Source: Mucisphaera calidilacus
Lineage (GTDB): Bacteria; Planctomycetota; Phycisphaerae; Phycisphaerales; Phycisphaeraceae
NCBI RefSeq assembly: GCF_007748075.1
Contig: NZ_CP036280.1
Location: 3,150,001 to 3,182,000, forward strand
DNA: 32,000 bases
Direction: 5' to 3'
The translations under genes and the position numbers were made by a program. Shown piece after piece: positions 5,301-20,431 of the stretch. The notes under the pieces are model-generated. The model made no database searches. It saw nothing but the letters and a program-made list of their open reading frames with translations, and was not told the DNA's origin. Within the stretch, counting starts at the first letter, position 1. The number at the start of each line of letters is the position of its first letter.

Positions 5301-6446
5301 TTAGTCGAGGTCTTTGAGGGTGCGTTGTGCGAGGGTTTGTTCGTCGCCTTTGAGTCGCGGTTCGGCGGCGGCGAGGAGTTCTTTGGCGCGTTGGGGTTGG
5401 CTGAGGTATCGGGCGTAGAGGAGTCCGAGGAGGAGCTGGACCTGGGCGCGGTCGTGGTAGGTGTTGTAGGCGGTGAGGAAGTTTTCGTAGGCGCGTGCGG
5501 CGGCGTCGTGTCGCTGATCGCTCATGAGCTGGTTGGCGACGTCGAGTTGTGCGTCGATGGCGAGGGTTTGTTTTTCGTCGACGGTGAGGAGGTCGGTGTA
5601 TCGGAGCGCGGCCTGGTGGAGGTCGCCTCGGCTCATGGCGCTGGCGATGTTCTCGCGGATGGTCTGTGCGCGTTGTTGTTGTTCGGAGAGGGGTTGTTGG
5701 GTGTCTTTGGTTTCGGTTTTTTGTGCTTCCCAGGGCTGGTAGCCTGAGCGTGCGAGTTTTCGGAATTCGGATCGTCGTCGTTTCTGGGCGATGAGTGCGA
5801 GCATGTCGTAGGGCTCGCGTTTGAGGAGTCTGGTCATGAGCAGTGCCATGGAGATGACGAAGCCGTAGAAGTAACCGGCGATGTGTGCCATGTAGGCGAC
5901 CTCGCCGATGCCGTTGAGCTGGAAGAGGATGTCCTGTGCGACGCGGAAGAGGATGAGTGCCATGCCCGAGACCTCGAAGGTCCCGATGATGACGAGGATG
6001 TAGAGGATGGTGACGGTGCTCTGGGGGAAGAGCGCGAGGTAGGCGCCGGTGACGGCGGCGACGGACCCGGAGGCGCCGAGGACGGGTGCGGTGTCGGTGA
6101 GGGTGTGTCCGAGTCCGGCGATGACGCCGCCTGAGAGGTAGAAGAAGAGGTAGGCGATTTTGCCGAGTCGGTCTTCGACGAGGTTGCCGAAGACGTAGAG
6201 GAAGACCATGTTGCCGGTGAGGTGGAGCCAGTCGGCGTGGAGGAACTGGTAGGTGATGAATTGCGAGAGACGGGCGGATTCGGGCCAGAGGAAGAACTGG
6301 GCGACGAATCGGTAGGGTTCGGTGTCGACGGCCTGTTGGAGTTGTGTGCCTGTGAGGAGGAAGGCGAGGACGGAGAGACCGATCAGGGTGTAGTTGACGA
6401 CGGGTGTGCGTCGTTGGGGTCGGTCGGTTTTGAGTGGTAGGAGCAT
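5301..6446 (-). CDS. Rhomboid-family intramembrane serine protease with C-terminal TPR-like cytoplasmic domain
   Basis: Motifs HADWLHLTGNMVFLYVFG (HxxxxHxxxN), GASGSVAAVTGAY (GxSG catalytic Ser) and HIAGYFYGF (catalytic His). The C-terminal ~150 aa are helical-repeat-like. Confidence 0.88.
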   Translation of the reverse strand: MLLPLKTDRPQRRTPVVNYTLIGLSVLAFLLTGTQLQQAVDTEPYRFVAQFFLWPESARLSQFITYQFLHADWLHLTGNMVFLYVFGNLVEDRLGKIAYLFFYLSGGVIAGLGHTLTDTAPVLGASGSVAAVTGAYLALFPQSTVTILYILVIIGTFEVSGMALILFRVAQDILFQLNGIGEVAYMAHIAGYFYGFVISMALLMTRLLKREPYDMLALIAQKRRRSEFRKLARSGYQPWEAQKTETKDTQQPLSEQQQRAQTIRENIASAMSRGDLHQAALRYTDLLTVDEKQTLAIDAQLDVANQLMSDQRHDAAARAYENFLTAYNTYHDRAQVQLLLGLLYARYLSQPQRAKELLAAAEPRLKGDEQTLAQRTLKDLD

Positions 6447-6503
6447 GCTCGGCCCGGTTTACGGGAGGTTGTTGATACCCGGAGGATACCGATCAGAGCG
6501 TGT

Positions 6504-7160
6504 TCAGGGGCTGTCGGCCTCGGCGAAAAGGGCGACGGAGTAGGCGGTGCCGGGCTGAGCGTCGAGTTGGATCTCGATGGGTTTGCCGGCGGGCGCGGGG
6601 AGTTGTGCTTCCCAGTGTGTGGGGTTGTCGCCTGGCTGTTGGGGTCGGATGACGACGTAGGCGGGTTTGCGGATGGCGTTGAGTTGCGTGATGGCTTCCT
6701 GGGGGAGCAGGAGGACGAATCGTCCCTGGTCTTCGATGACTTTGGCTTCGCCGACCCATGCGGGCTGTGTGCTGGGGTGGTAGGCGACGGCGGAGTTCCA
6801 CGCCTCGACGATGATGCGTGTCGGTGGTTTTTCGTGGGGGAAGGTGGTGACGAACATGGCACCGGCGCAGAGGATGGCGACGCCGAGGGAGAGGCCGAGG
6901 TAGCCGAGGAATCGTCGTCGTCGGGGGTTTGCGGTGGCGGCGACGGTGGCGGACTCGGCGCGCGGGGTCACGACGGGTGAGGGCACCTGGGGGATGACGT
7001 TCTCTTTCTGCCTGAGGGTGCTGCCATCGGGCTGGGCAACGATGTGCGCGAGCTGGATGCGTGAGGCTTTGCCACACGAAGGGCAGCGTCGAGCGGCCCC
7101 GAGACGCACGAAGGGCAGAGAGAGGTCGTCCTTACAAAATGGACAGCGAACGGTGTACAT
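6504..7160 (-). CDS. Zinc-ribbon single-pass membrane protein (hypothetical)
   Basis: N-terminus MYTVRCPFCKDD...RCPSCGK (CxxC...CxxC). RRRR followed by the TM segment FLGYLGLSLGVAILCAGAMFVTTF, then a ~120-aa C-terminal domain. It sits 57 nt upstream of the rhomboid gene on the same strand. I preferred it over the overlapping 6383-6862 and 6493-7077 ORFs, which are low-complexity. Confidence 0.7.
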   Translation of the reverse strand: MYTVRCPFCKDDLSLPFVRLGAARRCPSCGKASRIQLAHIVAQPDGSTLRQKENVIPQVPSPVVTPRAESATVAATANPRRRRFLGYLGLSLGVAILCAGAMFVTTFPHEKPPTRIIVEAWNSAVAYHPSTQPAWVGEAKVIEDQGRFVLLLPQEAITQLNAIRKPAYVVIRPQQPGDNPTHWEAQLPAPAGKPIEIQLDAQPGTAYSVALFAEADSP

Positions 7161-7232: not shown

Positions 7233-8138
7233 TTGATGAGGTTGATTAGAATCGTGGTTATGAACGAGTCGCTTTCATCGGTTTCGGATGGCTTCGCGGT
7301 GCCCGGCTACAGCCTGATCGAGGGTCCGGGCGGTTTGCCGGTGGTTTCACTGGTGAACGATCATGGTGTGGCCTCGATTGCGTTGCAGGGAGCGACGGTG
7401 TTGTCGTACCGGCCGTCGGACGAGGCAGATGTTTTGTATGTATCGGAATCAGCGGTATTTAGCGACGGACAGCCGATTCGTGGGGGGGTTCCGATCTGTT
7501 TTCCGTGGTTTGGTTCTCACGGGACGGATGCGGGCAAGCCGTCGCACGGGACGGTACGGACGCGGGCGTGGGAGCTGGTGGGTGTGCACGAGCACAACGG
7601 GGCGTTGACGGTGCGTCTGACGACGCGTGAGGGGGTGTTGGCGGTGGCGTTTGAGGTGACGCTTGGGCCTCGGTTGGGGATGTCGCTTGAGGTGGAGCAC
7701 ACGGGGCGTTCGGGTGAGTCGGAGGTGTTTGAGGCGGCGTTGCACACGTATTTGTCGGTGGGTGACGTGTCGGGGGCGACGGTGACGGGGTTGGAGCAGA
7801 CGGATTACCTGGATCAGCTGGAGGGTCGGCGTCGTTTGACGCAGGGGGATGATCCGATTGTTTTCGAGGGCGAGGTGGACCGGATTTATCTGAACACGTC
7901 GGCGACGTGCGTGCTGCACGACCCGGTTTTTGAGCGTTCGGTGGCGGTGGACAAGGATGGTTCGCGTTCGACGGTGGTGTGGAACCCGTGGATCGAGAAG
8001 GCGCGTCGTCTGGCGGATCTGCCGGATGATGCGTGGCAGCGTTTTGTGTGTATTGAGACGGGGAACATCGCGGATAACGCGGTGACGCTTCGTGCGGGCG
8101 AGCGTCATCGGATGGCGGCGGCGTTGTCGGTGCAGTGA
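7233..8138 (+). CDS. D-hexose-6-phosphate mutarotase / aldose-1-epimerase-like protein (YeaD family)
   Basis: Motif GGVPICFPWFG and the overall beta-rich pattern typical of the YeaD-type aldose epimerase family. The start is uncertain (ATG 7233 or ATG 7260). Confidence 0.75.
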   Translation: MMRLIRIVVMNESLSSVSDGFAVPGYSLIEGPGGLPVVSLVNDHGVASIALQGATVLSYRPSDEADVLYVSESAVFSDGQPIRGGVPICFPWFGSHGTDAGKPSHGTVRTRAWELVGVHEHNGALTVRLTTREGVLAVAFEVTLGPRLGMSLEVEHTGRSGESEVFEAALHTYLSVGDVSGATVTGLEQTDYLDQLEGRRRLTQGDDPIVFEGEVDRIYLNTSATCVLHDPVFERSVAVDKDGSRSTVVWNPWIEKARRLADLPDDAWQRFVCIETGNIADNAVTLRAGERHRMAAALSVQ

Positions 8139-8224
8139 TGGTTTAGACTGGTTGGGTTGCGTCTGTGTGCGTGTGCGTGGTGCCGGGGCGGCCGCGTGGG
8201 TTTCCTGATTGAGAAGGATGGATT

Positions 8225-9601
8225 ATGTCGCGAGGTTTTCCGCTCCACTGGCAGATCGTGGTGGGTTTGATTCTGGGCGTGGTGGTGGGTCTGGCGTTGA
8301 ACAGTTACTGGACGGCGTCGACGTGGTCGGGATTGGGTGTGGAGGACGTGTCGCTGTTTCTGGAGGGCGGTCCGTTTGAGGGGGAGGACCCGAACACGGG
8401 TGCGGGTGCGGGTGCTTATGTGGCGGGGTTCGTGGCGAACCTGAATGGTTTTGTGGGTGATCTGTTTCTGCGGGCGCTGCGTCTGATTGGTCCGCCGATC
8501 GTGTTTTTCAGTCTGATCGTGGGTATTGCGAGTCTGCATGATCTGAACAAGGTGGGTCGGATCGGGACGAAGACGATCGTGATTTACCTGTCGACGACGG
8601 CGGTGGCGATTTCGCTGGGCGTGGTGCTGGCGAACGTGATCGGTCCGGGGCGTGGTTTCCCGGAGGAGCTGCGTACGGAGCTGATCGCGGGGTATGCGGA
8701 CTCGGCGTTCGCGAAGGTGGGAGCGGCGTCGACGCGTCCGACGACGTGGGAGGTGTTGTTGAACCTGGTGCCGTCGAACCCGTTTGCGGCACTGGCTCAG
8801 GCGAAGATGCTGCAGATCATCACGGTGGCTTTGCTGATCGGGATTTCGTTGACGCTGCTGCCTCGGGAGCGAGCGAAGGTGGTGGTGGATTTCTGTGACG
8901 TGATGACGGAGGTGACGATCAAGGTCGTGCACATGGTGTTGTATCTGGCGCCTTATGCGGTGTTCGCGTTGATTGCGGGCGTGGTGGCGGACCTGGGCGC
9001 GGAGGTGTTGCTGTCGCTGTTGCAGTATTCGCTGGTGGTGGTGGCGGGGTTGGGGTTGATGATGTTCGGGGTGTACCCGTTGCTGGTGGGCTTGTTGGCG
9101 GGTGTGGGTTATGGGCGGTTCTTCACGGCGATCAGTCCGGCGCAGCTGCTGGCGTTCAGCTCGGCGAGTTCGGGCGCGACGATCCCGGTGACGATGGAGT
9201 GCTGCGAGGAGCGTCTGGGCGCGTCGGAGGAGGTGACGAGTTTCGTGGTGCCTCTGGGCGCGACGATCAACATGGACGGGACGGCGTTGTACCTGGGTGT
9301 GTGCGCGGTGTTCATCGCGCAGATCTTCGGTGTGGAGCTGACGCTGGCGGACAATCTGGTGATCGTGCTGACGGCGACGCTGGCGTCGATCGGGACGGCG
9401 GCGGTGCCGGGCGCGGGTGTGATCATGATGGTGATCGTGCTGCAGGCGGTGGGTCTGCCTCTGGAGGGGATCGCGGTGATTCTGGGCGTGGACCGGATTC
9501 TGGACATGTGCCGGACGTCGTGCAACGTGACGGGCGACTGCATGGTGACGGCGGTGGTGGCGGCGTCGGAGGGTGGGTTGAAGAGGGCGGACGAGGTGTA
9601 G
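8225..9601 (+). CDS. Dicarboxylate/amino acid:cation symporter (DAACS / GltP-DctA family)
   Basis: 458 aa and multi-pass. The motif SSASSGATIPVTMEC corresponds to the conserved SSSxATLP hairpin motif, followed by VPLGATINMDGTALY. AAGGA lies upstream of the ATG at 8225. Confidence 0.88.
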   Translation: MSRGFPLHWQIVVGLILGVVVGLALNSYWTASTWSGLGVEDVSLFLEGGPFEGEDPNTGAGAGAYVAGFVANLNGFVGDLFLRALRLIGPPIVFFSLIVGIASLHDLNKVGRIGTKTIVIYLSTTAVAISLGVVLANVIGPGRGFPEELRTELIAGYADSAFAKVGAASTRPTTWEVLLNLVPSNPFAALAQAKMLQIITVALLIGISLTLLPRERAKVVVDFCDVMTEVTIKVVHMVLYLAPYAVFALIAGVVADLGAEVLLSLLQYSLVVVAGLGLMMFGVYPLLVGLLAGVGYGRFFTAISPAQLLAFSSASSGATIPVTMECCEERLGASEEVTSFVVPLGATINMDGTALYLGVCAVFIAQIFGVELTLADNLVIVLTATLASIGTAAVPGAGVIMMVIVLQAVGLPLEGIAVILGVDRILDMCRTSCNVTGDCMVTAVVAASEGGLKRADEV

Positions 9602-9620
9602 GCCACACAGCAACCTCGGG

Positions 9621-9753: not shown

Positions 9754-10683
9754 TTGGCTGAGGCGACGATGCGGCGGGTTCGGATTGGTCATTCGCCTGA
9801 CCCGGATGACGCATTCATGTGGTATCCGCTGGCGAACTTCACGGGTCCGAGCGGAGAGGTTCACCGGCCGCAGATTGACACGGGGGGTTTTGCGTTCGAG
9901 CACGTGATGGAGGACATCGAGTCGCTGAACCAGCGGAGCGAGCGTGGTGAGCTGGAGGTGACGGCGTTGTCGATCCATCAGTTCCCTTATGTGGCGGATC
10001 GTTATGTGCTGACGAGTTGCGGGTCGTCGATGGGTGACGGTTATGGTCCGATCGTGGTGACGCCTGCGGATCGGGAGGGTGGTTCGCGGGATGACGGGGC
10101 GGTGAAGTGGCTCAAGGGCAAGCGTCTGGCGATTCCGGGTGTGCGGACGAGTGCGTGGTTGTCGATGCAGCTGCGTCTGGCGGAGGTGGGTCTGAGTGCG
10201 GCGGACGTGGACTGGTCGGTGGTGGCGTTTGACGAGATCCCGGATCGCGTGCTGGCGGGCGAGGCGGACGCGGGGTTGTTGATTCACGAGGGTCAGTTGA
10301 CGTATGAGAAGCAGGGTTTGCGTCTGGTGGAGGACCTGGGCAAGTGGTGGACCGACTCGCGTGGGCTGCCTCTTCCGCTGGGGGGCAATGCGATCCGCAA
10401 GGATCTGGGTGACGCGGTGGGTCCGTTGTGCGGGGTGTTGTTGGATTCGATCGAGTGGGCGCTGGAGCATCGGGCGGAGAGTGTGGGTTTTGCGTTGCAG
10501 TGGGCGCGGGGGATGGGCAGCGCGTTGGCGGATGAGTTTGTGGGGATGTACGTGAACGACTGGACGCTTGACTATGGCGAGCGTGGTCGCGCGGCGGTGA
10601 CGCGTTTTATTGAGGAGGGGGTGAGGGCGGGCCTGGTGCCTGACAAGGGCGCGGTGGCGTTTGCGGAGCCTGAGCGGGGCTAG
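9754..10683 (+). CDS. MqnA/MqnD/SBP-fold family protein (futalosine-pathway menaquinone biosynthesis-like)
   Basis: N-terminal RIGHSPDPDDAFMWYPL resembles the SPCPND-type motif of MqnD-like periplasmic-binding-fold enzymes. The TTG start at 9754 is preceded by AAGGAG (9741-9746) at 7-nt spacing. Confidence 0.65.
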   Translation: MAEATMRRVRIGHSPDPDDAFMWYPLANFTGPSGEVHRPQIDTGGFAFEHVMEDIESLNQRSERGELEVTALSIHQFPYVADRYVLTSCGSSMGDGYGPIVVTPADREGGSRDDGAVKWLKGKRLAIPGVRTSAWLSMQLRLAEVGLSAADVDWSVVAFDEIPDRVLAGEADAGLLIHEGQLTYEKQGLRLVEDLGKWWTDSRGLPLPLGGNAIRKDLGDAVGPLCGVLLDSIEWALEHRAESVGFALQWARGMGSALADEFVGMYVNDWTLDYGERGRAAVTRFIEEGVRAGLVPDKGAVAFAEPERG

Positions 10684-10717
10684 GGGTTTGTGCGTCTGCG
10701 GTTCTGCTCCGGTCGGG

Positions 10718-11326
10718 TCAGGGTGTGGTGGGGATTTGGGAGAGGGAGTGGTGTGATGGGGGTGTGTTGAAGTCGTTGGGGGTAAGGTTGCCGGTGAGGG
10801 TGTTGAGCTGGATCTGGGTGTCGGAGAGTTTCTGTCGGAGGGTGAGGGCTTGTTGTTCGGCGGCGCCGGCGGCGGAGCTGGATGACCAGAGCATGAGGAG
10901 GGAGAGGGTGAGGATGGAGGCGAAGATGGCGCTGGAGGTGAAGAAGAGTTTGCGGAGTCGCTGGTTCTGTTCGTTGAGGAGTCGGACCTTGTCGTGGGCC
11001 TCGTCGGTCTGTCGCTGAGCGAGGACGACGGCGGCGCCGGCGAGTCGCTGGTATCGGTGCGCCTCGGGTGCGTCGGAGGGTGCGGTGTCGGCGAGGAGGT
11101 CGCCTGGGGCGAAGGTCTGGGCGTGTTCGGGGTCGAAGAGTTGCTCGATGGCCTCTTCGGGTGAGTCGGGTGTGGTGGGCTCGTCGGCGGGTATCCGGAC
11201 TTTCTTTCGGCCGTCGGTTTCGACGCGGACGTCGAGCATGGATCGGGCGATGCGTCGTCGGATGGTGGAGGTGCTGACGCCCAGGGCCTGGGCGGCTTGT
11301 TGGATGGTGACCCAGGCTTGCGGCAC
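10718..11326 (-). CDS. Membrane-anchored DNA-binding protein with excisionase/MerR-type HTH, coiled coil and one TM segment
   Basis: N-terminus VTIQQAAQALGVSTSTIRRRIARSML (HTH_17/excisionase-like). A heptad-like segment RQTDEAHDKVRLLNEQNQRLRKL, the TM segment FFTSSAIFASILTLSLLMLW, then a second coiled segment. It starts 75 nt downstream of TerL. Confidence 0.7.
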   Translation of the reverse strand: MPQAWVTIQQAAQALGVSTSTIRRRIARSMLDVRVETDGRKKVRIPADEPTTPDSPEEAIEQLFDPEHAQTFAPGDLLADTAPSDAPEAHRYQRLAGAAVVLAQRQTDEAHDKVRLLNEQNQRLRKLFFTSSAIFASILTLSLLMLWSSSSAAGAAEQQALTLRQKLSDTQIQLNTLTGNLTPNDFNTPPSHHSLSQIPTTP

Positions 11327-11401
11327 GGGTTGGTCTCCCTGAGGTGTGTGTAGTGATGATTTCGGGTGGATCGGGTGTTGTGTTGAGCGTGTTGTCGGGG
11401 A

Positions 11402-12916
11402 TCAGTAGTTGATGACGGTCGCGGGTCGTGAGCCGAGGTCGAGGTTGACGATCAGGTAGCGGAGGGCGTCGGCGGCGTGGTCGGGTCCGTCCTTGACGGG
11501 TTCGAGGTGTGTGGGTCGTTTGTGGTCGAAGTGGTAGCAGGTGAGTGCGTGGATGAGGTGTGTGCATCGCGGGTCGATGTGGAGTCGGTCGTGGTCGATG
11601 TGGTTTCGGACGCGTTCGATGCCGTCGCGGATGCGGTGTCGGTGTGATCGGACGTTGAAGCCGTGGTCGCGTAGGAGGTCGATATCGGAGCGTCCGGTGT
11701 GGGCGTTGCGTGCGGAGCCGGCGGGGTCGACGGCGGCCCATCGCGGCATAGGGTGGGGTCGTGCGGTGATGCGTTGGATGTGTTGTCCGAGGGTGAGGTC
11801 GGTCTGGTGGTATTCGTCGATGACGTGGAGGGTGGTCTGGCCGAGGTCGTTGTAGGCGTGTGCGGCCCAGAGGAAGACGGTGGGTGATCGGAGTCCGAAG
11901 TCCATGCCGGCGACGAGGGTGTGGTTTTCGGACGAGGTGTAGGGTCGGACGTGTCGCGTGGGGTTGAAGGTGGGGTAGACGGCGTCGTCTCGTGAGGGTC
12001 GGTGGCAGAGCATTTCGGCGTGCCAGGTGGCGGTTGAGGTTCGTGCGTGCTGCTGGATGAGGTCGTCGATGGGGATGAAGCCGCGGGCGTTGCGTGCGCG
12101 TCCCTGACAGTCGGGTTCGAGTGGGCAGGTGTTGCAGGATCGTGAGGTCGGGCAGGGTTGTGCGGTGTCGATGGCGGACCATCGGAGTTGTTGTCGGTGT
12201 GTGGCGGCGGGTGTGGTGTTGTCGATGAGTGCGGACATGAGTCCGCCGGGCCGGTGAGCGGTGGAGAGTGCGTGGACGGAGCCGCGGACGAACCAGGGGC
12301 CGCATCGCCCGGAGCGTGTGGTGAGTTGTGCGGCCTGCCAGATGTCGTGTTGGAACTCTTCGACCTCGTCGCATCGGAGTCGGTGGACGCGTGTGCCGCG
12401 GACGGAGCGGTGTGACTGTGCGAGTATTTCGAGGGCGGAGCCGTTGGCGAGTGTGAGTCGTCGCTGGGTGGGTGGCTGGGCGAGGACGGAGTTGGTGGAT
12501 CCGGGTTTGGGGTGATGGAGCAGGGGTGTGTTGAGGAGCCGGAGCAGGTGGTGGTGCATGCGTAGGGATTGCTCGAGGGATCCGCCGAGGATGCGCAGCT
12601 GGAAGCCGGGTTTGAAGATGAGGTCGAGGAGTGAGGCGACGGCGCCGAGCAGGGTTTTTCCGCCGCCTCGGTTGGCCCAGACGACGATGTCGGCGGGTGC
12701 GTGGTGTTGGTGTCGTGCGGCGAGCTGGTCGGCGAAGAAGCTGCGGAGCAGGTATTGGAAGGGGGGTGATGCGTTGGGGGTGACGGCGTGTCGGGGGACG
12801 TTGAGTCCGAGTCCGACGCGGACGAATCGGTGGAGCTGGTCGGGTGTCTGGGGGCAGGCGGACTGGAGGAGTCGGAGTCGTGTGGAGGGTTTTCGTTGGT
12901 GGTCGTGGCGGGTCAT
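11402..12916 (-). CDS. Phage terminase large subunit (TerL)-like ATPase-nuclease
   Basis: Walker A VVWANRGGGKTLLGAV and Walker B RLRCDEVEEF. RNase-H-like nuclease motifs VAGMDFGLRSPTVFLW, VIDEY, AAVDPAGSAR and DGPDHAADALRYL. A Cys cluster CPTSRSCNTCPLEPDC lies between the two domains. The true start is the ATG at 12916, overlapping the upstream stop as ATGA. The 769-aa track ORF extending to 13711 is a shadow extension. Confidence 0.88.
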   Translation of the reverse strand: MTRHDHQRKPSTRLRLLQSACPQTPDQLHRFVRVGLGLNVPRHAVTPNASPPFQYLLRSFFADQLAARHQHHAPADIVVWANRGGGKTLLGAVASLLDLIFKPGFQLRILGGSLEQSLRMHHHLLRLLNTPLLHHPKPGSTNSVLAQPPTQRRLTLANGSALEILAQSHRSVRGTRVHRLRCDEVEEFQHDIWQAAQLTTRSGRCGPWFVRGSVHALSTAHRPGGLMSALIDNTTPAATHRQQLRWSAIDTAQPCPTSRSCNTCPLEPDCQGRARNARGFIPIDDLIQQHARTSTATWHAEMLCHRPSRDDAVYPTFNPTRHVRPYTSSENHTLVAGMDFGLRSPTVFLWAAHAYNDLGQTTLHVIDEYHQTDLTLGQHIQRITARPHPMPRWAAVDPAGSARNAHTGRSDIDLLRDHGFNVRSHRHRIRDGIERVRNHIDHDRLHIDPRCTHLIHALTCYHFDHKRPTHLEPVKDGPDHAADALRYLIVNLDLGSRPATVINY

Positions 12917-13335
12917 GGCTGGTCCTGGTGGTCGGTGTCTTCGTCGTCGTCGTGGGTGTAGAGGATTTCGCGGAGCTGCTGGGGTGTGAGGTTGTCGTCG
13001 TGTTGGTCGGGTGTGGTCGGCAGGTGTCGGTCGAGTTTGAGGAGGTCGACGCAGGCCTTGCGTGCGGTTTCGGAGTTGGTGGGTTCTTCGGCGGTGGCGA
13101 GGGTGAGCAGTCGGGAGGCGGCCATGAGTCGGCATCGTCCGAGGAGGAGTTGTGTCTGGAGGTCGGCGAGCGAGCAGAGGGCGCCGAGGGTTCGGAGGGT
13201 GTCTTCGCGTGAGGCCCATGCGGCGAGTTCGTGGGTGGAGAGTTTGTGGTTTTCGGCGATGCCGACCCAGTCGGACTCGGCGCGGATGAGGTCGGCGAGG
13301 AGTGCGCGGGCGCGGTTGCTCGACATCTTGCTCAT
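12913..13335 (-). CDS. Small helical acidic-tailed protein; positional candidate for a terminase small subunit
   Basis: 140 aa, translationally coupled to TerL (ATGA at 12913-12916). Helical composition with an acidic C-terminus DDDEDTDHQDQP. I recognise no motif; the function is inferred from position only. Confidence 0.55.
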   Translation of the reverse strand: MSKMSSNRARALLADLIRAESDWVGIAENHKLSTHELAAWASREDTLRTLGALCSLADLQTQLLLGRCRLMAASRLLTLATAEEPTNSETARKACVDLLKLDRHLPTTPDQHDDNLTPQQLREILYTHDDDEDTDHQDQP

Positions 13336-13350
13336 GGTGTTGGTCCCGGG

Positions 13351-14007
13351 TCAGTGGTTGTGCTGTTCGACGAGTTTCATGAGGGCGTCGGAGCGTGAGC
13401 CGCCCAGGGATCGGAGGGTCTGGTCGAGTCGTTGGCGTTGGGGTGGTGTGAGGAAGAAGTGGACGGCGAGGGTTTGTTGTTCGGGGGGTGTGGGTGGTTG
13501 GAGTCGTGGTTGGGTGGTGGTGAGTTGGATGAGGTGTTCTGCGGCGGAGCGGTCTTCGGGGAGCAGGGGTGTGATATCGGGGAGGGGGATGTGTCGGGTG
13601 AGTTGGGTGAGGAGTTGTCCGCGTCGGGTGGGGTTGTCGGAGCCTGAGAGTCGATTGAGGGTGGCGAGGTAGACGAGTGCCTGAGCGTCGTCGACGTCCC
13701 AGACGAGGCATCGTGCGTGGGTGTGGTTGAGTTGCTGGAGGGCTCGGCGTCGGTGGTGACCGTCGAGGATCTGGTAGGTGTTGCGGGTGAGGGGTCTGGT
13801 GATGATGGGCGGGTAGTGGCTGGTTTTGCTGATGTGTCGGGCGAGTTTGTCGATCATGCGTTGGCGCATGACGTTGGCGTTGTGGGGGTGTTGCTGGAGT
13901 TGTTCAAGCGGGATGTTGTGGAGCGTGTTGGGGGTTGATGTGGGCGTAGTAGACGGGTTCGACGAGGACGCGGGTGCGTGCGGTGTTGAGTTGTTGTGGT
14001 GTGTCAT
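13351..14007 (-). CDS. ParB/Sulfiredoxin (ParB N-terminal nuclease-like) domain protein
   Basis: NIPLEQLQQHPHNANVM...YPPIITRPL...YQILDGHHRRRAL matches the ParB/Srx N-terminal domain pattern, including DGHHR. The only in-frame canonical start upstream of the domain is the ATG at 14007. That start gives a 104-nt out-of-frame overlap with the GNAT gene. Confidence 0.75.
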   Translation of the reverse strand: MTHHNNSTPHAPASSSNPSTTPTSTPNTLHNIPLEQLQQHPHNANVMRQRMIDKLARHISKTSHYPPIITRPLTRNTYQILDGHHRRRALQQLNHTHARCLVWDVDDAQALVYLATLNRLSGSDNPTRRGQLLTQLTRHIPLPDITPLLPEDRSAAEHLIQLTTTQPRLQPPTPPEQQTLAVHFFLTPPQRQRLDQTLRSLGGSRSDALMKLVEQHNH

Positions 14008-14707
14008 GGTGTCGTCGTCCTCCTCGTCCGGCGTTCTGCTGGTACCAGCGTTGGACTTCCCGGATGAGGAAGTGTTGTGTGGCTGGCGGCCGGCGTTGGA
14101 TGTCCTGCCATAAGCGTGCGGGTCGTGCCAGGTCGGTGCGCACGAACCCGGCGTGTTCGAGGGCGTCGAGGAGTCGCTGGTCGCAGGGGAGGGGTGGTCG
14201 GGTGTAGGGGGTCATGCCGGCGTGCTGGAAGAAGGGGTTGATGCGTCCCATGGCGGCGAGGGCTTCGGTGACGGGTGTGGTGGCGGTTTCGAGGGCGTGT
14301 CGGACGAGTCGGACGGCGAGGCCGTTGCCTCGGAACCGGGGGTGGACGATGACGCGGCTGATGCAGCGGATTTCCTGGTTGATGAGTCGGGCGCGTTGTG
14401 CGGGTGGGAGGGTGTTGCCGAAGCGTTGGTTGAGGGCGTGGTCGCGGAGGTTGCAGGCGAGTGCGGGGAGGGACTCGACGAGGATGGCGGCGGGTTGCGG
14501 CCTGGGTGTGCGCGCGAGCCAGCGGTCGGCGGGTGAGGGGTGTGTGTGGAGGAGGGCAAGGATGCGTGTGGCGGTGGCGGGTTTGTCGGCGCGGTAGTGG
14601 AAGGGGGCGAGTTGGCGGAGGTGGTCCCATGTGCCGGTGGTGAGGGTGAGGGCGTTGTCGTGGGCGGCGGGGTTGTGGAAGCGTTGGCGTAGGGTGGTGG
14701 TTGTCAT
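13904..14707 (-). CDS. GNAT-fold N-acetyltransferase-like protein
   Basis: CISRVIVHPRFRGNGLAVRLVRHALE fits the GNAT acetyl-CoA-binding motif A (R/Q-x-x-G-x-G/A). 267 aa. The ATG at 14707 overlaps the ATPase stop as ATGA (14704-14707). Confidence 0.65.
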   Translation of the reverse strand: MTTTTLRQRFHNPAAHDNALTLTTGTWDHLRQLAPFHYRADKPATATRILALLHTHPSPADRWLARTPRPQPAAILVESLPALACNLRDHALNQRFGNTLPPAQRARLINQEIRCISRVIVHPRFRGNGLAVRLVRHALETATTPVTEALAAMGRINPFFQHAGMTPYTRPPLPCDQRLLDALEHAGFVRTDLARPARLWQDIQRRPPATQHFLIREVQRWYQQNAGRGGRRHHDTPQQLNTARTRVLVEPVYYAHINPQHAPQHPA

Positions 14708-15399
14708 CGTGTGAGGACCTCGGCCTGGTGGTGGGGTGTGAGGTGGACGAGGGTGTCGGGCTGGAGGGGTTCGAGGAGGTCGTCGTGGGCGGTGGCGATG
14801 ACGAGGGTGGCGTGCGTGGTTCGTGACCAGCGGTGGAGGGTTTTGGCGAGGTTGGCGGCGGTGGTTCGGTCGAGGGGTGCGGCGAACTCGTCGGCGGTGA
14901 GGAGGGTTCGGGTGTCGGGTGGTGTGTGTTGTGAGAGCGCGATGGCGTGGGCGAGTCGGAGTCGGAAGCGTTGGCCGACGGAGAGTTGCGCGGGTGTTCG
15001 GAGCAGGAGTGCGGCCTCGGCGAGTCCGGCGCGGGAGAGGGCGTGGGTGAGGGTGTTGAGGTCGTCGGGCAGGGGTTGGGGGAGGCCTTCGGCGAGGGGT
15101 CGGTCGGGCCAGGGCGGGAGGTGGTCGAGGTCGATGTGTCGGGTGTCGGGGTCGTGGTGCTTGAGTTGGGTGGTGAGTTCGCGGAGGAGTGTGGACTTTC
15201 CGGTGCCTGAGGGCCCGGTGATGAAGACGAGTTGTGCGGGCCGGAGGGTGAGCTGGAGGGGCGGGACGAGGGTGAGGGGTTGGGATTGGTCGGCGTCGAG
15301 GCCGAAGAGGGCGGCGGCGTGGGCGACGGCGGGTGCGTCGTGGGTTGTGGGGGTGACGGTGGCGTGGAGGTCGAGGGTGACAGGGTTTATCACTTGCAA
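14704..15399 (-). CDS. Stand-alone ABC-type ATPase (no permease partner)
   Basis: Walker A FITGPSGTGKSTLL, signature-like LSVGQRFRLRLAHA, Walker B TLLTADEFAAPLD and H-loop-like VIATAHD. The start is TTG 15399 or GTG 15393, the latter 8 nt after GGGAG. Confidence 0.75.
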   Translation of the reverse strand: MQVINPVTLDLHATVTPTTHDAPAVAHAAALFGLDADQSQPLTLVPPLQLTLRPAQLVFITGPSGTGKSTLLRELTTQLKHHDPDTRHIDLDHLPPWPDRPLAEGLPQPLPDDLNTLTHALSRAGLAEAALLLRTPAQLSVGQRFRLRLAHAIALSQHTPPDTRTLLTADEFAAPLDRTTAANLAKTLHRWSRTTHATLVIATAHDDLLEPLQPDTLVHLTPHHQAEVLTR

Positions 15400-15438
15400 A
15401 ACTCCCGGTGTGTTTGGGGTGAGGGTTGGGTGCGGGGA

Positions 15439-15852
15439 TCAGAGTCGGGCGAGTGCTTTGACGACGCCCATGTGTTCGCGGACGCGGTGGAGGGAGATGC
15501 CGGTTTGTCGCGCGGTTTTGCGGAGGCTGTGGCCATGGAGCGCGACGGATTTCGCGGTGGGTCGGACGTCGGGCGGGAGGAGGTCGAGTTGCGTGGCGAC
15601 GAAGGCGAAGAGGTCGGAGTTGAGTCGGTTGAGGAGGTTTCGGAGTCGTCGCTGGACGGTTCTTGGGGGCTTATCGAGGAGTCGTGCGGTATCGGTGATG
15701 GTCATGCCATGGCGGTAGATCTGATCGAGGAGGAGTTGTTCGTGTCGTGGGAGGTAGGCGGCGCGAGCGAGGATGCGGTCGGCGTGGTTTCGCTGGCTGA
15801 CGCGAGCGTGCAGTTGTTTTTCGGTGGCGCGTTCGACGGTGGTTGCGGACAT
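15439..15852 (-). CDS. Small protein with two tandem sigma-70 region-4 / LuxR-like HTH domains (transcription activator or TerS-like DNA recognition protein)
   Basis: LPRHEQLLLDQIYRHGMTITDTARLLDKPPRTVQRRLRNLLNRL and LPPDVRPTAKSVALHGHSLRKTARQTGISLHRVREHM both fit the region-4 pattern. ATG at 15852 with GGGAGA 5 nt upstream. Confidence 0.7.
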   Translation of the reverse strand: MSATTVERATEKQLHARVSQRNHADRILARAAYLPRHEQLLLDQIYRHGMTITDTARLLDKPPRTVQRRLRNLLNRLNSDLFAFVATQLDLLPPDVRPTAKSVALHGHSLRKTARQTGISLHRVREHMGVVKALARL

Positions 15853-15895
15853 GGCTTTCTCCCTGTAAGTTAGGTGTCTGTTTGGTTATCCCCGG

Positions 15896-15923
15896 AGTAT
15901 ACGGCGGGTGGTCGTGCTGTCAA
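15896..15923 (-). promoter_or_regulatory. Sigma-70-type promoter for the module operon: -35 TTGACA, 16-nt spacer, -10 TATACT
   Basis: On the minus strand, TTGACA is at 15923-15918 and TATACT at 15901-15896. The predicted TSS is about 37 nt upstream of the ATG at 15852. Confidence 0.55.
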
Positions 15924-15936
15924 GACTTCGTATACT
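15896..15936. promoter_or_regulatory. Candidate operator pair: inverted 8-mers AGTATACG / CGTATACT, each containing the GTATAC palindrome
   Basis: AGTATACG (15896-15903) overlaps the -10. CGTATACT (15929-15936) lies just upstream of the -35. The centres are 33 bp apart (about 3 helical turns), bracketing the operon promoter. Confidence 0.45.
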
Positions 15937-16002
15937 GATTATTAAACCCTGCATGAACATCGATCAAGTTAATTTATGATATCTTTACAATTTAGTGCTT
16001 AA

Positions 16003-16935
16003 ATGGGTCGGATTGATGAAGGGAGGTGTTGTTTGGCTGTTGGTGGGTCGTCGTCGGATGTGGGACTGGGGGAGTTGCTGCGTGGGTATCGTCGGGCGCG
16101 TGGTTTGAGTTTGTCGGCGTTGGCGGGGCGTTGTGGTGTGACGAAGGGGTATTTGTCGCTGATTGAGAATGGTCGTGTGGGCCGTCCGCCGAGCGAGCGT
16201 GTGGTGTCGTCGCTGGAGGAGGCGTTGGGGTTGACGGACGGGTCGTTGCGTCGTGCGGCGGCGTGGGCGACGACGCCTGAGGCGATCCGTGCGGAGGTGG
16301 ATCGTTTGCGTGCGGACGCGTCGTTTTCGCATCGATTGGCGCGGACGCTGCTTGCGGCGGGCGGCAAGTCGGGTGCGGGTCCGGTGGATCTGGATGCGTT
16401 GTACCGGGCGGGCGTGCTGGGACGAGTTACGTCGGAGGGTGCTGCCGGGGAGGATGCGGGGGGTGCTGCCGGGGGGAGAGCCGAGGGGGGAGCCGGGGGT
16501 GATTCCGGGGGTGCGATGCGTTTGTTGACGGAGGCGATGGCGGAGCGTGTGCCGCTGATCAATCGTGTGCCGGCGGGGTATCCGGCGGGTTTCACGGATC
16601 TTGGGTTTCCGGCGCGGGTGGCGGACGAGTATGTGCCTTGTCCGGGGGTGCGGGATCGTGACGCGTTTGCGGCGCGGGTAGTGGGTGATTCGATGGAGCC
16701 TGAGTACCGTGAGGGTGACGTGGTGGTGTTTTCGCCTGAGTCGGACGTGGTGGACGGGTGTGATTGTTTTGTGCGTCTGGAGCCGGACCACGAGACGACG
16801 TTCAAGCGTGTGTTTTTTGATGGAGAGGGTGAGGTTCGGCTGCAGCCTTTGAACCCGCGGTACCCGGCGCGGGTGTTGGAGCGTGAGCAGGTGGCGGGTT
16901 TGTACCGTGCGGTGTGGCGGATGTCGCGTTTGTGA
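16003..16935 (+). CDS. cI/LexA-type autocleavable repressor: XRE-family HTH + S24 peptidase domain
   Basis: HTH LGELLRGYRRARGLSLSALAGRCGVTKGYLSLIENG. VPLINRVPAGYPAGF aligns with the LexA cleavage-site strand (IPLxGRVAAGxP), with an Ala-Gly bond. Catalytic Ser in VVGDSMEP and Lys in TFKRV. The start is ATG 16003, or TTG 16033 preceded by GGGAGG (16021-16026). Confidence 0.85.
   Translation: MGRIDEGRCCLAVGGSSSDVGLGELLRGYRRARGLSLSALAGRCGVTKGYLSLIENGRVGRPPSERVVSSLEEALGLTDGSLRRAAAWATTPEAIRAEVDRLRADASFSHRLARTLLAAGGKSGAGPVDLDALYRAGVLGRVTSEGAAGEDAGGAAGGRAEGGAGGDSGGAMRLLTEAMAERVPLINRVPAGYPAGFTDLGFPARVADEYVPCPGVRDRDAFAARVVGDSMEPEYREGDVVVFSPESDVVDGCDCFVRLEPDHETTFKRVFFDGEGEVRLQPLNPRYPARVLEREQVAGLYRAVWRMSRL
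16438..16509 (+). repeat. Imperfect 24-nt in-frame tandem repeat (x3) encoding the Gly/Ala linker GAAGEDAG-GAAGGRAE-GGAGGDSG
   Basis: GGTGCTGCCGGGG occurs at 16438-16450 and 16462-16474. A third, degenerate unit follows. The tract is rich in CCGGGGG. Confidence 0.7.
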
Positions 16936-17099
16936 TGGGTTGTGCGCATGGGGCCTCCGGAGAGGCGTGCGGGTGTCGCGTCTGTGCGCACGGGCGGGCT
17001 AGGGATAACCCTGACTATCTTCGGATTCGGGGATCTGATATGTTATGTAAGTCTGCATTGATGCAGTGCCTGCAGGCCACGAGCTGGAGATGATTTCCG

Positions 17100-17855
17100 A
17101 TGGATGCGACGGCGGTGATCTGGATTATTGTGGCTCAGGCCATCGGTTTTCTGATGCAGGGGATGGTGGGTTTTGGCGCGGGTCTGATCATCGTGCCCAT
17201 CCTGGTGTGTGTGGGGATGGACGTTCCGATGGCGGTGGGAGCGTTGCTGGGTGGTGTGATGGTGGGTACGGGGCAGCGTTGTCTGCGTCGTCAGGAGGAT
17301 TTTGAGTGGGCGGACGTGTGGGCGTTGTCGTCGTGGCGGATGGTGGGGATTCCGGTGGGTGTGTGGCTGCTGGGTGTGCTGGTGGAGCAGTGGCAGCCGT
17401 CGCAGATCAAGCAGATGGTGGGTTTGCTGCTGGCGTTCGGGTTGCTGGCGATGTGGACGATGAAGGTTCAGCCGCGTGAGAAGGTGGGTCGTGGCTGGAC
17501 GGTTGCGGCGGGGATTTCGAGTGGTGCGTTGGGTGGTCTGGTGGGGATGAGTGGTCCGCTGGCGGTGATGTGGGTGATGGCGCACGACTGGTCGCCTGTG
17601 CGATCGCGTGCGACGTTGTGGGGGATTTTCTTCTTGTTCTCGCCGCCTGCGACGGCGGTGCTGGCGTGGCGTTTTGGTCCGGACGTGTTGTGGGCGTTCC
17701 TGGTGGGGATGTTGTGTTTCCCGGCGGTGGCGCTGGCGGATTTTGCGGGTGACCGGCTGGGTCGTCGTTTCACGAAGTCGGGTTTGCGTCGTGCGTCGTA
17801 CGGGCTGCTGGTGATCATCGCGTTGGTGGCGATGGTTGAGCCGTTGTTTGGTTGA
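17100..17855 (+). CDS. TauE/SafE (TSUP) family anion exporter membrane protein
   Basis: 251 aa and multi-pass. The N-terminus IWIIVAQAIGFLMQGMVGFGAGLIIVPIL is typical of the TSUP family, and an internal repeat carries GALGGLVGMSGP. Confidence 0.8.
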   Translation: MDATAVIWIIVAQAIGFLMQGMVGFGAGLIIVPILVCVGMDVPMAVGALLGGVMVGTGQRCLRRQEDFEWADVWALSSWRMVGIPVGVWLLGVLVEQWQPSQIKQMVGLLLAFGLLAMWTMKVQPREKVGRGWTVAAGISSGALGGLVGMSGPLAVMWVMAHDWSPVRSRATLWGIFFLFSPPATAVLAWRFGPDVLWAFLVGMLCFPAVALADFAGDRLGRRFTKSGLRRASYGLLVIIALVAMVEPLFG

Positions 17856-17866
17856 GGTGATGTATC

Positions 17867-18070
17867 TCAGGGGTTCAGTCGGCGGTAGTCGTCGGTCAGC
17901 ATGCCGGTGAAGCCCCAGTTCTCGGGGTCGACTTCGTCGATGATGATGTGGGTTTGTTCGGGTTTTTTGTCGAGGACTTCGACGAGTGTCTGCGTGATGC
18001 GTTCGACGAGTTCGCGTTTTTGTTCGCGGGTGACGCCATCGCGTGTGATTCGGACATTGACGTAGGGCAT
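17867..18070 (-). CDS. 4-oxalocrotonate tautomerase family protein
   Basis: MPYVNVRITRDGVTREQKRELVERITQTLVEVL has the obligatory Pro-1 after Met and the tautomerase beta-alpha-beta pattern. ATG at 18070 with GAGGAA upstream. The track start at 18112 would bury Pro-1. Confidence 0.85.
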   Translation of the reverse strand: MPYVNVRITRDGVTREQKRELVERITQTLVEVLDKKPEQTHIIIDEVDPENWGFTGMLTDDYRRLNP

Positions 18071-18360
18071 GGTGGGTTCCTCGGTGTGGTGAAGAACCGT
18101 GATCGTAGGCATGCTTCAAGCGGCTCGGCGGCGTCGGAGGAATGCGGGTGTGAGGGCGAGGAGTATGAGTGAGGCGGGTTCGGGGATTGAGGTCTGGCTG
18201 AAGTTGACGGCGAGAATGGAGAGGTCGAGGAGATCGACGGTGTTGTCGTGGTTGAAGTCGCCCTGGGTGTAGTCGAAGGTTCCGGGTTGGTTGTAGTTGA
18301 TGCTTAGGATATGGAGGTCGTAGAAGTTGACTATGCCGTCGTTGTTGACGTCGGCTGGAA

Positions 18361-18368
18361 GGGGGGGG
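18361..18368. repeat. G8 (C8 on the coding strand) homopolymer at the frame break
   Basis: Read directly as ctggaa-gggggggg-cttgtag. Seven or ten Cs would join the two reading frames. Confidence 0.9.
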
Positions 18369-19160
18369 CTTGTAGATGAAGGTCACTTCGCCTGTGGCCA
18401 TGAGGCTGGAGGTGTCGAAGGTGCCGGCATGGGTGTTGCTGATGATCTGGTCGAAGTTGCCGGTGATGTCGGCGTGGGTCCAGTCGAAGAGCTGGTAGGT
18501 GACGCCGTCGAGGAGGATCAGGTCGTCGAGGGTGAGGCCGTCGTCGAATTCGAGGAGGAGGGTTCCGGCGAGGGTGACGGGCGTGTCGAGTTCGGCGAAC
18601 TGGATCTGCGAGCCCCAATGATCGTCTTCGAAGACCATGCGGAGGGTAGCGGCGGGGTCGAGGGTGAGGTGCTGTTCGACGGTGATGGGGATGATGGGGT
18701 CGGATTCATCCCGTGGCGCGTAGTCCCAGACGCGGAGGGCCTGGTTGGCGAGGAGGACCATGCCCTCGACGTGGCCGTCGGGGTGGATGAGGTTGGTGGT
18801 GTTGGCGGCTGAAAGCAGTTGGTCGCTGGTCAACCCGGAGGAACCTCTTGTATCGGCATTGATGAAGTCGGCGTTGGTCAGGTTGGCGTTGTTGAAATTT
18901 GTGTTGGTCAGGTTGGCGTCGGTCAGCGTGGTATCTTCGAAGTATGCCTCGGTGAGGTTGGCGTTGGTGAGGTTGGCGTTGGTGAGGTCGACGTCGGTCA
19001 GCTTGGCAAACCAGAAGCCTGCTCCGGTGAGGTTGGTGTTGGTGAGGTTCGCATTGGTGAGCGTGGCGTGGTCGAAATCCGCGTCGGTGAGGTTCTGGTT
19101 GGTGAGGTCCCAGTCGGTCAGGTCGTTGTATCTGAGGCGCAGGCCCTGGAGGTTCTTGTT

Positions 19161-19931
19161 CTGGTAGCTGGCGGTGCTGTAGAGCTGGGCAGGGGTGAAA
19201 CCACGAGAGGTGGTGTGACTAAAACCTGCTTCGGTGATGAGAGCGTTGGTGAGGTCGGCGTCGGTGAGCATGGCATTGAAGAAGGACGCGTTGGTGAGGT
19301 TCTGGCCCGTGAAGTCCCAGCCGGTGAGATCGTTGTAGCCCAGATCCAGGCCACTGAGGTCTTTGTTCTGGTAGCTGGCGGTGCTGTAGAGCTGGGCTGC
19401 GGTGAAACCGTTATAGGTTGCATGAGCGAAGACCGCGTCGATGATGTTGGCGTTGGTGAGGTCGGCGTTGCTGAGTGTGGCACTATAGAAGAACGCCTCG
19501 GTGAGGTCGGCGTTGGTCAGGTCGGCGTTCGTCAGCGTGGCTCGGTAGAAGTCAGCGTCGGTGAGGTTCTGGCCTGCCAGGTTCCAGCCGGTCAGGTCGC
19601 TGTAGCCCAGATCCAGGCCGCGAAGGTCTTTGTACTGGTAGCTGGCGGTGCTGTAGAGCTGGGCTGCGGTGAAACCAGAATTGGTGGTTGAGCGGAAGTT
19701 CGCTTCCGCGATAACGGCGTTCGTCAAGTCGGCGTCGATCAGCGTGGCCCCGCGAAAGGATGCGTCGGTAAGGTTGGCGTTGGTGAGGTTGGTGTTGGTG
19801 AGGTCGGCGTAGTAGAAGTCTGCCCGTGTGAGGTTCTGATCGGAGAAGTCCCAGCCGGTGAGGTCGTTGTAGCCCAGATCCAGGCCACTGAGGTCTTTGT
19901 TCTGGTAGCTGGCGGTGCTGTAGAGCTGGGC
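19161..19931 (-). repeat. Long-period intragenic repeats (207/267/267-bp spacing) inside the pentapeptide-repeat gene
   Basis: The identical 30-mer ctggtagctggcggtgctgtagagctgggc starts at 19161, 19368, 19635 and 19902. The protein has four copies of GFT(A/P)AQLYSTASYQxKxLxGLxLxYxDLTxW, each followed by pentapeptide arrays. Confidence 0.85.
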
Positions 19932-20431
19932 TGCGGTGAAGCCGGAATCGGTGGTTGAGAGGAAGAACGCTCCTGTGATGAGAGCGTTGGTGAGATCGGC
20001 ATCAGTCAGTGTGGCTCTAAGCAGGAGCGCCTCGGTGAGGTTGGTATTGGACAGGCTGGCGTGGGTCAGGTCGGCTTGGAAGAGGTAGGCCTTGGTGAGG
20101 TCGAGGTCCTTGAGGATGGCGTTGGGCTCAGCCACGCGTCCTGCGCCATCGGGGGCGAGGGTGGTGGATCGCTGGCGGGCCAGACCGGGGTTTGCGGTGT
20201 CAATGTACTCCCACTGGTAGATATCGGCTTGTGCGGTGGTCGCGAGGGTGAGCGCGAGGGCGGCGAGGCCCCCGGAAGTCGAGCGTGTCATGGTGCTCTC
20301 TCCTGTGACGCTTCTTACAGAGTAGCACGATCAGGAGGCCAATCAATCCGAATCACAAGGTGTGGGCGACTTTGATCAGATTTGTGCGCATGGCACAGGG
20401 TGCCGGAAGGGGCTGAGCCGGGGGTGCGTGT

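Follow-up and report, generated by a model that had tools for sequence, protein, structure and literature searches.

A phage-derived terminase operon inherited vertically across Phycisphaerae

The genome of Mucisphaera calidilacus (Phycisphaerae, Planctomycetota) carries a compact gene cluster built around a phage terminase, at positions 10718-16935 of the 32,000-nucleotide (nt) stretch of DNA analyzed here (the window). A repressor gene of the XRE-S24 type is transcribed divergently from genes that encode, in order, a tandem helix-turn-helix (HTH) protein, an ABC ATPase, a GNAT-like protein, a ParB protein, a small protein and a large terminase subunit (TerL), and the cluster lacks genes for an integrase, replication, capsid, tail or lysis. 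It is well supported that an ancestor of much of Phycisphaerae acquired this phage DNA-packaging module, which has been passed on vertically ever since as an operon of the chromosome. Retaining, of a whole phage, only the part that recognizes, cuts and pumps DNA, stand-alone and beside an SOS-type repressor, is unusual; the domesticated phage parts known to us, such as gene transfer agents (GTAs), tailocins and contractile injection systems, have structural genes at their core. What might a cell do with a packaging motor and no virion? We favor, tentatively and at a likelihood somewhat short of even, an anciently domesticated terminase operon that is derepressed by DNA damage and loads DNA into capsids supplied in trans.

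Conservation, inheritance and selection

A check of the open reading frames (ORFs) of the window recovered all eight ORFs of the cluster at the positions assigned to them beforehand by a reading of the letters of the DNA (the sequence-only reading), and it confirmed the two ATGA stop/start overlaps (14704-14707 and 12913-12916), the 104-nt overlap of the ParB and GNAT-like genes and the strong strand bias that this reading had described. Apart from the ATG at 14007, no ATG, GTG, TTG or CTG precedes the conserved ParB box. The features of the cluster are as follows, from the repressor side to the TerL side.

16003-16935, plus strand: XRE-HTH/peptidase S24 autocleavable repressor of the LexA/cI type (Peptidase_S24, HTH_31); start codon tentative
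15930-15947, minus strand: imperfect palindrome GTTTAATAATCAGTATAC, candidate S24 operator, read from the sequence
15896-15923, minus strand: sigma-70-type promoter, TTGACA, 16 nt, TATACT (11 of 12 consensus matches)
15869-15886, minus strand: direct repeat ACCTAAC-N4-ACCAAAC, candidate second operator (alignment columns, pattern counts)
15439-15852, minus strand: tandem sigma-70 region-4-like HTH protein of 137 amino acids (aa) (Sigma70_r4_2)
14704-15399, minus strand: stand-alone ABC-type ATPase of the transporter nucleotide-binding-domain type (ABC_tran, phrog_293)
13904-14707, minus strand: GNAT-fold acyltransferase-like protein with N- and C-terminal extensions (Acetyltransf_1, AlphaFold2 model, Foldseek, hhalign)
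13351-14007, minus strand: ParB/Srx N-terminal-domain protein with DGHHRRRA (GxxRxxA motif) (ParB_N, phrog_723)
12913-13335, minus strand: probable small terminase subunit (TerS-like), 140 aa (position, fold)
11402-12916, minus strand: large terminase subunit TerL, 504 aa, ATPase and RNaseH-like nuclease (Terminase_6C, PHROG, PDB)
10718-11326, minus strand: accessory 202-aa protein with an N-terminal MerR/excisionase-like HTH and one hydrophobic segment (weak HTH matches)

In a scan of one genome per species, 519 species genomes encoded a TerL relative. Counts by locus refer here to the best 80 of these 519, each taken with 10 kb on either side and searched by tblastn; all 80 belong to Phycisphaerae or Planctomycetota, and the gene order is the same in them. 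TerL was found in all 80, the GNAT-like gene in 73, ParB in 71, ABC in 68, the small protein in 67, the tandem-HTH gene in 60, S24 in 55 and the neighboring MqnD gene in 27, with the gaps falling mostly at contig ends. Seven independently fetched genomes contain the same cluster, and its cultured carriers include M. calidilacus, Poriferisphaera sp. WC338 and strain ZRK32. Two variants were also seen: one locus (L005, 6784-11776) holds ParB, the small protein, one more ORF and TerL, without the ABC, GNAT-like, HTH and S24 genes, and in Poriferisphaera sp. WC338 and strain ZRK32 the GNAT-like gene has moved to a place ahead of the HTH gene, and S24 is absent. Strain ZRK32 is reported to release tail-less hexagonal particles without lysis (PMC10945688); the same paper, which describes a "chronic phage", mentions no terminase, portal or capsid and draws no link to this locus.

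The cluster has diverged together with the chromosomes that carry it. TerL homologues are ~50% identical across Phycisphaerae, the protein identity of the cluster falls in step with that of flanking housekeeping genes, and pairwise TerL and MqnD distances correlate (r = 0.71; Mantel test 0/2000). The surroundings are partly shared as well. In the window the cluster is flanked by TauE and tautomerase genes on the repressor side and by a VitK2_biosynth (MqnD-like) gene on the TerL side, flanks common to several relatives, and mraZ or murE-murF-mraY lies near the cluster in relatives, mraY and murF being found at 28-31 kb in the window.

All cluster genes are clearly under purifying selection, with dN/dS of 0.13-0.24 compared with 0.13 for the neighboring MqnD gene (L002 versus L006, a pair chosen for its normal GC skew). 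Values of 0.46-0.93 inside Mucisphaera were considered as a sign of relaxed selection and rejected, since the strand bias of that lineage holds synonymous sites fixed and, by depressing synonymous divergence, distorts dN/dS. The bias is indeed strong: the count of 33 G and 3 C at 10741-10800 given by the sequence-only reading is exact, GC skew is 0.44 in the module and 0.31 and 0.39 in its flanks, and over the window it runs from +0.31 to +0.44, regardless of which strand the genes lie on. At codon position 3, the C fraction is 0.69-0.73 in the module genes and 0.72-0.77 in mraY, murF and GDE, and the composition of the cluster is fully ameliorated to that of its host. More generally, plus-strand genes have 0.60-0.66 G and minus-strand genes 0.69-0.77 C at this position. 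Extreme skew is limited to the Mucisphaera lineage (+0.375 for the window, -0.36 for L001, -0.33 for L012), and a sister Phycisphaeraceae genome (L013) has a skew of only +0.06.

The sequence-only reading had argued for long residence and not recent decay, and had named synteny and dN/dS as ways to check it. The shared cluster with its kept order, the partly syntenic flanks, the purifying selection and the ameliorated composition all bear this out, and every related locus examined had the same cluster. A decaying prophage remnant without present function would fit the phage ancestry of the cluster and the loss of most phage genes, but TerL forms a single full-length alignment without stops in 80/80 loci, dN/dS is low in every cluster gene, and both the active sites and the regulatory DNA are conserved, so that we give such a remnant next to no probability.

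A second origin to be weighed, proposed by the sequence-only reading, is an integrase-less phage satellite that redirects helper packaging to its own DNA. TerS-like and TerL genes of its own and a cI-like repressor are what some satellites carry, but integrase, att site, tRNA and replication gene are all absent, the same chromosomal neighbors persist across genomes whose TerLs are only ~50% identical, and the pairwise distances follow those of a neighboring housekeeping gene. Scans of the window gave no tRNA or Rfam match and no flanking direct repeats above compositional noise, in agreement with the earlier remark that tRNAs and convincing att repeats are lacking. The chromosomal TerL type was not found among 2.9 million viral contigs (IMG/VR), nor on plasmids, where only distant phage-plasmid terminases were seen. 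A satellite is on these grounds very unlikely. The only recombinase seen, a Xer-like tyrosine recombinase, is encoded immediately next to S24 in one locus (L096). Taken together, intact genes, selection, motif conservation and tracked divergence rule out a decaying prophage and argue strongly against a mobile satellite. Of the three readings offered from the sequence, a domesticated DNA-processing system fits best.

The terminase, its partners and their surroundings

TerL is 100% identical to the NCBI protein of M. calidilacus. Its identity as a terminase is supported by matches to Terminase_6C (1.8e-8), the PHROG TerL family (6e-19) and PDB entry 5oe8 (1e-11), with a weak match to Terminase_6N (0.039). 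Across 15 sequences G84, G86, K87, T88, D183, E184, D339, D397, D476, D479, D483 and four cysteines are invariant, which supplies the Walker A, Walker B and nuclease acidic residues of a Terminase_6-type ATPase joined to an RNaseH-like nuclease. The four cysteines (C-x5-C-x2-C-x5-C, residues 255-270, window 12107-12154) lie between the ATPase and nuclease domains in an insert that may bind metal. The closest viral TerLs, ~35% identical, come from metagenomic viral contigs and have the same N-terminal extension and four-Cys insert; the insert is present in the viral-contig TerL of L009 and absent in the TerLs of SSU5, RHEph10 and nickie. One metagenomic viral contig with a related TerL has a portal gene downstream. 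Cyanovirin-N chains matched by the TerL profile (positions 196-283; 3.7e-7 for the whole sequence) were set aside as spurious, no single stretch being significant.

The small protein, whose gene overlaps the TerL start by ATGA, is probably TerS, on evidence from position and fold that is weak but consistent. Its AlphaFold2 model (predicted local distance difference test score, pLDDT, 81) combines an HTH at the N terminus with a long helical hairpin and an acidic tail; the top BFVD fold matches have E values of 5e-3 to 1e-2 and probabilities of 0.96-1.0, and proteins named "terminase small subunit" stand lower in the same list. A homologue (P0335) bears that name in UniRef. The best Foldseek match in the PDB, the phBC6A51 phage protein 2ao9, is not significant (E 0.56), PDB sequence profiles gave zero matches, and tblastn found no match among 50,697 phage records. 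Comparisons by hhalign with the pre-TerL "DNA-binding" proteins of pJN2-26, RHEph10 and nickie, and with the pair of ORFs that precede TerL in the viral L009 contig, revealed no relation. The small helical protein of the sequence-only reading therefore keeps its gene, and its description is corrected to a probable TerS.

The ABC ATPase matches ABC_tran (3e-10) and phrog_293 (4e-23) and is 36% identical to an ABC protein of an SSU5-like phage (1e-18); across 68 orthologues its Walker A, signature LSxGQR, Walker B (ADEF) and H-loop show conservation of at least 90%. The GNAT-like protein gives a profile match to Acetyltransf_1 (1e-4) and, against PDB sequence profiles, only E values of 0.25 or worse. 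Its AlphaFold2 model (pLDDT 90) was found by Foldseek to have a GNAT fold, its RGxGLA motif is invariant in 45 sequences, and hhalign relates it to a phage protein annotated as an "ABC-ATPase-fused acyltransferase" (probability 97%, 4e-11). The top Foldseek matches of the model include NAT10/TmcA, AtaT/TacT and Mu Mom. NAT10 and TmcA are ATPase-coupled RNA cytidine acetyltransferases, and AtaT and TacT are tRNA-acetylating toxins. At the level of fold, this hints that the GNAT-like protein might have a nucleic-acid substrate.

Because the ABC and GNAT-like genes are neighbors in five viral contigs and are fused in one chromosomal locus, the two proteins work together, and they probably use ATP to modify a nucleic acid or a partner protein. 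The fusion, a single 513-aa protein (P0240), occurs in an otherwise typical cluster (L096, 5366-9542). The ParB protein, for its part, matches ParB_N (5e-8) and phrog_723 (2e-14), its PDB matches comprise Noc and ParB at 8e-7 together with ParB-like nucleases, and its HHR motif is at least 90% conserved in 72 orthologues. The catalytic motifs of TerL, ABC, ParB and GNAT-like proteins, described as intact from the single genome, are thus conserved across orthologues.

The last gene of the cluster stands apart from this set. It was described as an excisionase-type HTH membrane protein, and the ORF itself is sound; its HTH matches are all weak (HTH_17 5.5e-4, TIGR01764 3.3e-4, phrog_2474 2.6e-6), those to HTH_17 and excisionase families falling below curated cut-offs, and its hydrophobic segment was seen by eye. 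It is present in only 9/80 related loci and is accessory, not part of the conserved set.

Ten other ORFs of the window were scanned, and none matched a phage structural Pfam family; they include a rhomboid protease, an aldose epimerase, an MscS channel, MraY, MurF and a NAGPA-type phosphodiester glycosidase, and 3/10 lack a Pfam match. The window also holds a Mur-ligase-like ORF at 30981-31898. The density of stop trinucleotides is 9.6 per kb for the minus strand and 31.3 per kb for the plus strand, and this scarcity of minus-strand stops yields very long spurious ORFs (window 10680-12374, 8105-9613 and 17043-20291, all minus; L001 5750-6703). In L001 the public gene call is a 317-aa ORF on the wrong strand that covers the real S24 gene (5773-6675, minus). 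A pentapeptide-repeat gene (17043-20291, minus), not at this position in L001 and L012, runs for ~600 low-complexity codons in frame over the TauE and tautomerase genes before its stop, a readthrough that may reflect a frameshift or a missing stop.

Regulation and possible modes of action

The repressor matches Peptidase_S24 (4e-18) and HTH_31, an XRE-type HTH (1e-13), and its V-x-A-G cleavage site, G-x-S-M serine and T-F-K-R lysine are at least 90% conserved in 54 orthologues. Wherever it was found the S24 gene is divergent from the operon (55/80 loci), and several loci without it end before that position. The operon promoter is one of 2 promoter-like sites in 6.7 kb (0.3 expected), and TTGAC together with the -10 hexamer is conserved in 7/7 aligned loci. 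Motifs of the promoter region were counted separately, each with its own background estimate. Upstream of the promoter lies a palindrome with the family consensus (G)TTCAA-N6-TTGAA(C); the window copy ends 6 nt upstream of the -35 hexamer, TTCAA-N6-TTGAA stands ~23 nt upstream of TTGAC in 29/57 loci (background 0.03 per 265 nt), and the copy in L013 is a perfect palindrome, GTTTAAT-N4-ATTAAAC. The conserved divergent arrangement and the conserved palindrome lead us to infer that the S24 protein represses the operon, presumably binding the palindrome as a dimer.

A second element, the direct repeat ACCTAAC-N4-ACCAAAC just after the -10 hexamer, forms invariant columns in the 7-locus alignment, and its strict pattern is found in 18/57 loci against a background of 0.004. 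The tandem-HTH protein matches Sigma70_r4_2 over residues 26-72 (1.5e-7) and has a second, weaker HTH at residues 85-130, both halves being conserved in 60 orthologues; our guess is that this protein may bind the repeat.

These elements suggest how a damage-derepressed operon that loads capsids in trans might work. The S24 repressor would hold the sigma-70 promoter shut through a GTTCAA-N6-TTGAAC-type operator, and DNA damage would trigger RecA-stimulated self-cleavage at the conserved Ala-Gly site and so derepress the operon. The TerS-like protein, perhaps with ParB, would mark a site on DNA at which TerL would cut, and TerL might then pump the DNA into capsids drawn from an unlinked GTA-like head locus or from an induced or infecting phage. 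Host DNA would be packaged at the phage's expense, turning phage production into host-DNA transduction. Terminase motors act on portal vertices, and we regard loading of capsids in trans as the most economical model for this reason.

Several points weigh against this proposal. Portal, capsid, protease and tail genes are absent from the window and from the 10 kb around related loci, in a search of 80 loci whose portal and capsid queries were distant and whose sensitivity was accordingly limited; eight annotated loci contain no portal or major capsid protein, and no structural gene or integrase lies within 10 kb of seven homologues. The capsid source is thus hypothetical, the search for structural genes having covered the window and 10 kb on each side of the loci. 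A portal-docking motor would also not be expected to stay this conserved. The identity of TerS depends on weak structural matches, with no sequence match to phage proteins, and on the regulatory side the S24 gene is missing in some lineages (Poriferisphaera L038 and ZRK32, L080, for example) and the palindrome, being upstream of the -35 hexamer, is not placed where a repressor of this promoter would classically bind.

Could the terminase serve the cell without any capsid? The terminase and its helpers might form a damage-inducible DNA-processing machine without a virion, for instance one that carries out ATP-regulated cleavage or translocation of chromosomal DNA, or acylation of DNA or RNA by the ABC/GNAT pair. 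Such a role would account for the absence of nearby structural genes in more than 80 loci, for vertical retention throughout the class at a partly syntenic site near division and cell wall (dcw) genes, which resembles that of a core function, and for the attached SOS-type regulator. The match of the GNAT-like model to ATPase-coupled NAT10/TmcA and to Mu Mom, and the ABC-GNAT fusion in P0240, point the same way. We know of no precedent, however, for a TerL that works without a portal; retention of a TerS-like partner and a full phage-like helper set suggests that packaging chemistry has been preserved, and the Foldseek ranking among GNATs is shallow (template modelling (TM) scores of 0.3-0.38). 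A capsid-independent cellular role is therefore, in our estimate, unlikely, though it is the main rival, and its most specific form, in which a viral terminase motor together with its TerS-like, ParB and ABC/GNAT partners has become a class-wide, damage-inducible machine that cuts, moves or chemically marks chromosomal DNA, is quite unlikely.

The remaining reading, also raised earlier, is anti-phage defense or abortive infection, in which RecA activation would remove the repressor and the terminase and ParB nucleases would destroy phage or host DNA or jam packaging. The earlier suggestion of a defense module like known systems stands as far as the S24 sensor-type repressor goes, and the combination of an ABC ATPase with nuclease-type proteins does resemble the logic of many defense systems; phages with related TerLs, moreover, exist in metagenomes. 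The comparison with known systems did not hold: PADLOC-DB v2 matched no system, its only matches, to the ABC and HTH proteins, being generic (mad3 at 1.7e-14 for ABC, and mad1), and TerL, the GNAT-like protein and the small protein matched nothing. A stable position, vertical inheritance and near-universal gene order are unlike the patchy distribution and fast turnover of defense islands, and no other defense genes occur among the recurrent neighbors. Defense is, on balance, improbable.

Relation to known phage modules and domesticated elements

The sequence-only reading did not recognize the gene combination as any named system. No NCBIfam family names the gene set and a full-text literature search found no description of this cluster, but ParB, ABC, GNAT-like protein and TerL together are a known pre-terminase module of SSU5-like, RHEph10 and Nickievirus phages. 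SSU5-like phage-plasmids (represented by the Klebsiella phage pJN2-26), Rhizobium phage RHEph10 and Pseudomonas phage nickie, which represents Nickievirus, also carry ParB_N, ABC, GNAT-like and TerL genes, co-oriented and tightly packed, and their ABC proteins are ~36% identical to that of the cluster (1e-18 to 1e-30). In these phages the order is two ParB-like genes, an ABC ATPase, a small ORF, an annotated ABC-ATPase-fused acyltransferase, a further small ORF, a DNA-binding protein, TerL, portal and capsid. The differences are equally clear. ParB comes first in the phages, and portal, capsid and tail genes follow TerL directly, whereas nothing follows it in the Phycisphaerae cluster; the phage TerLs are 20-25% identical and lack the N-terminal extension and four-Cys insert, the gene in the TerS position is unrelated to the Phycisphaerae small protein, and no S24 repressor lies next to the module. 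In Gordonia phage AnClar a partial version is found: a protein with a ParB-like nuclease domain, an HNH endonuclease, an ABC-like protein that is 34% identical (7e-20), then a methyltransferase and a terminase. AnClar gp2 was considered as a GNAT-like fusion and rejected, the match being too weak (probability 13%).

Among individual components, the repressor shares with LexA/cI-family S24 repressors the Ser/Lys dyad, the Ala-Gly site, a palindromic candidate operator and a divergent operon. It differs from LexA in that its HTH is of the XRE type and not a winged helix, and it scores 27.9 bits against TIGR00498, where the cut-off is 110.95. The GNAT-like protein shares its fold with TmcA/NAT10 and Mu Mom and is likewise paired or fused with a P-loop ATPase; that ATPase is ABC-type, not helicase-type, and the match is at the level of fold only (12-15% identity, TM scores of 0.3-0.38).

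Satellites of the phage-inducible chromosomal island (PICI) and capsid-forming PICI (cf-PICI) types are similarly small elements with a repressor, their own terminase subunit or subunits and few virion genes. They also have integrases, att sites and replication genes and are mobile and patchily distributed, features that the Phycisphaerae cluster lacks.

There is also an evolutionary parallel with GTAs, the established example of phage packaging genes that pass vertically and are held under purifying selection, and both properties were found here. RcGTA-type GTAs resemble the cluster in having phage packaging genes that are lineage-fixed, vertically inherited, under purifying selection and subject to host stress regulation. 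The GTA clusters we know of, however, carry terminase together with portal, capsid and tail genes, whereas the Phycisphaerae cluster has the terminase module only, with head genes not located within 10 kb on each side. Should the operon fill capsids that come from another source, it would represent an unrecognized route of gene transfer or phage hijacking in Planctomycetota; if it works without capsids, it would be a new use of a viral motor in a DNA-transaction system not described before. Either way, the cluster offers a tractable, non-viral setting, in cultured strains, for studying the function of the little-studied ParB/ABC/GNAT pre-terminase genes. Domesticated phage-derived modules are a familiar kind, GTAs among them; what is unusual is a terminase-only module kept across hundreds of species.

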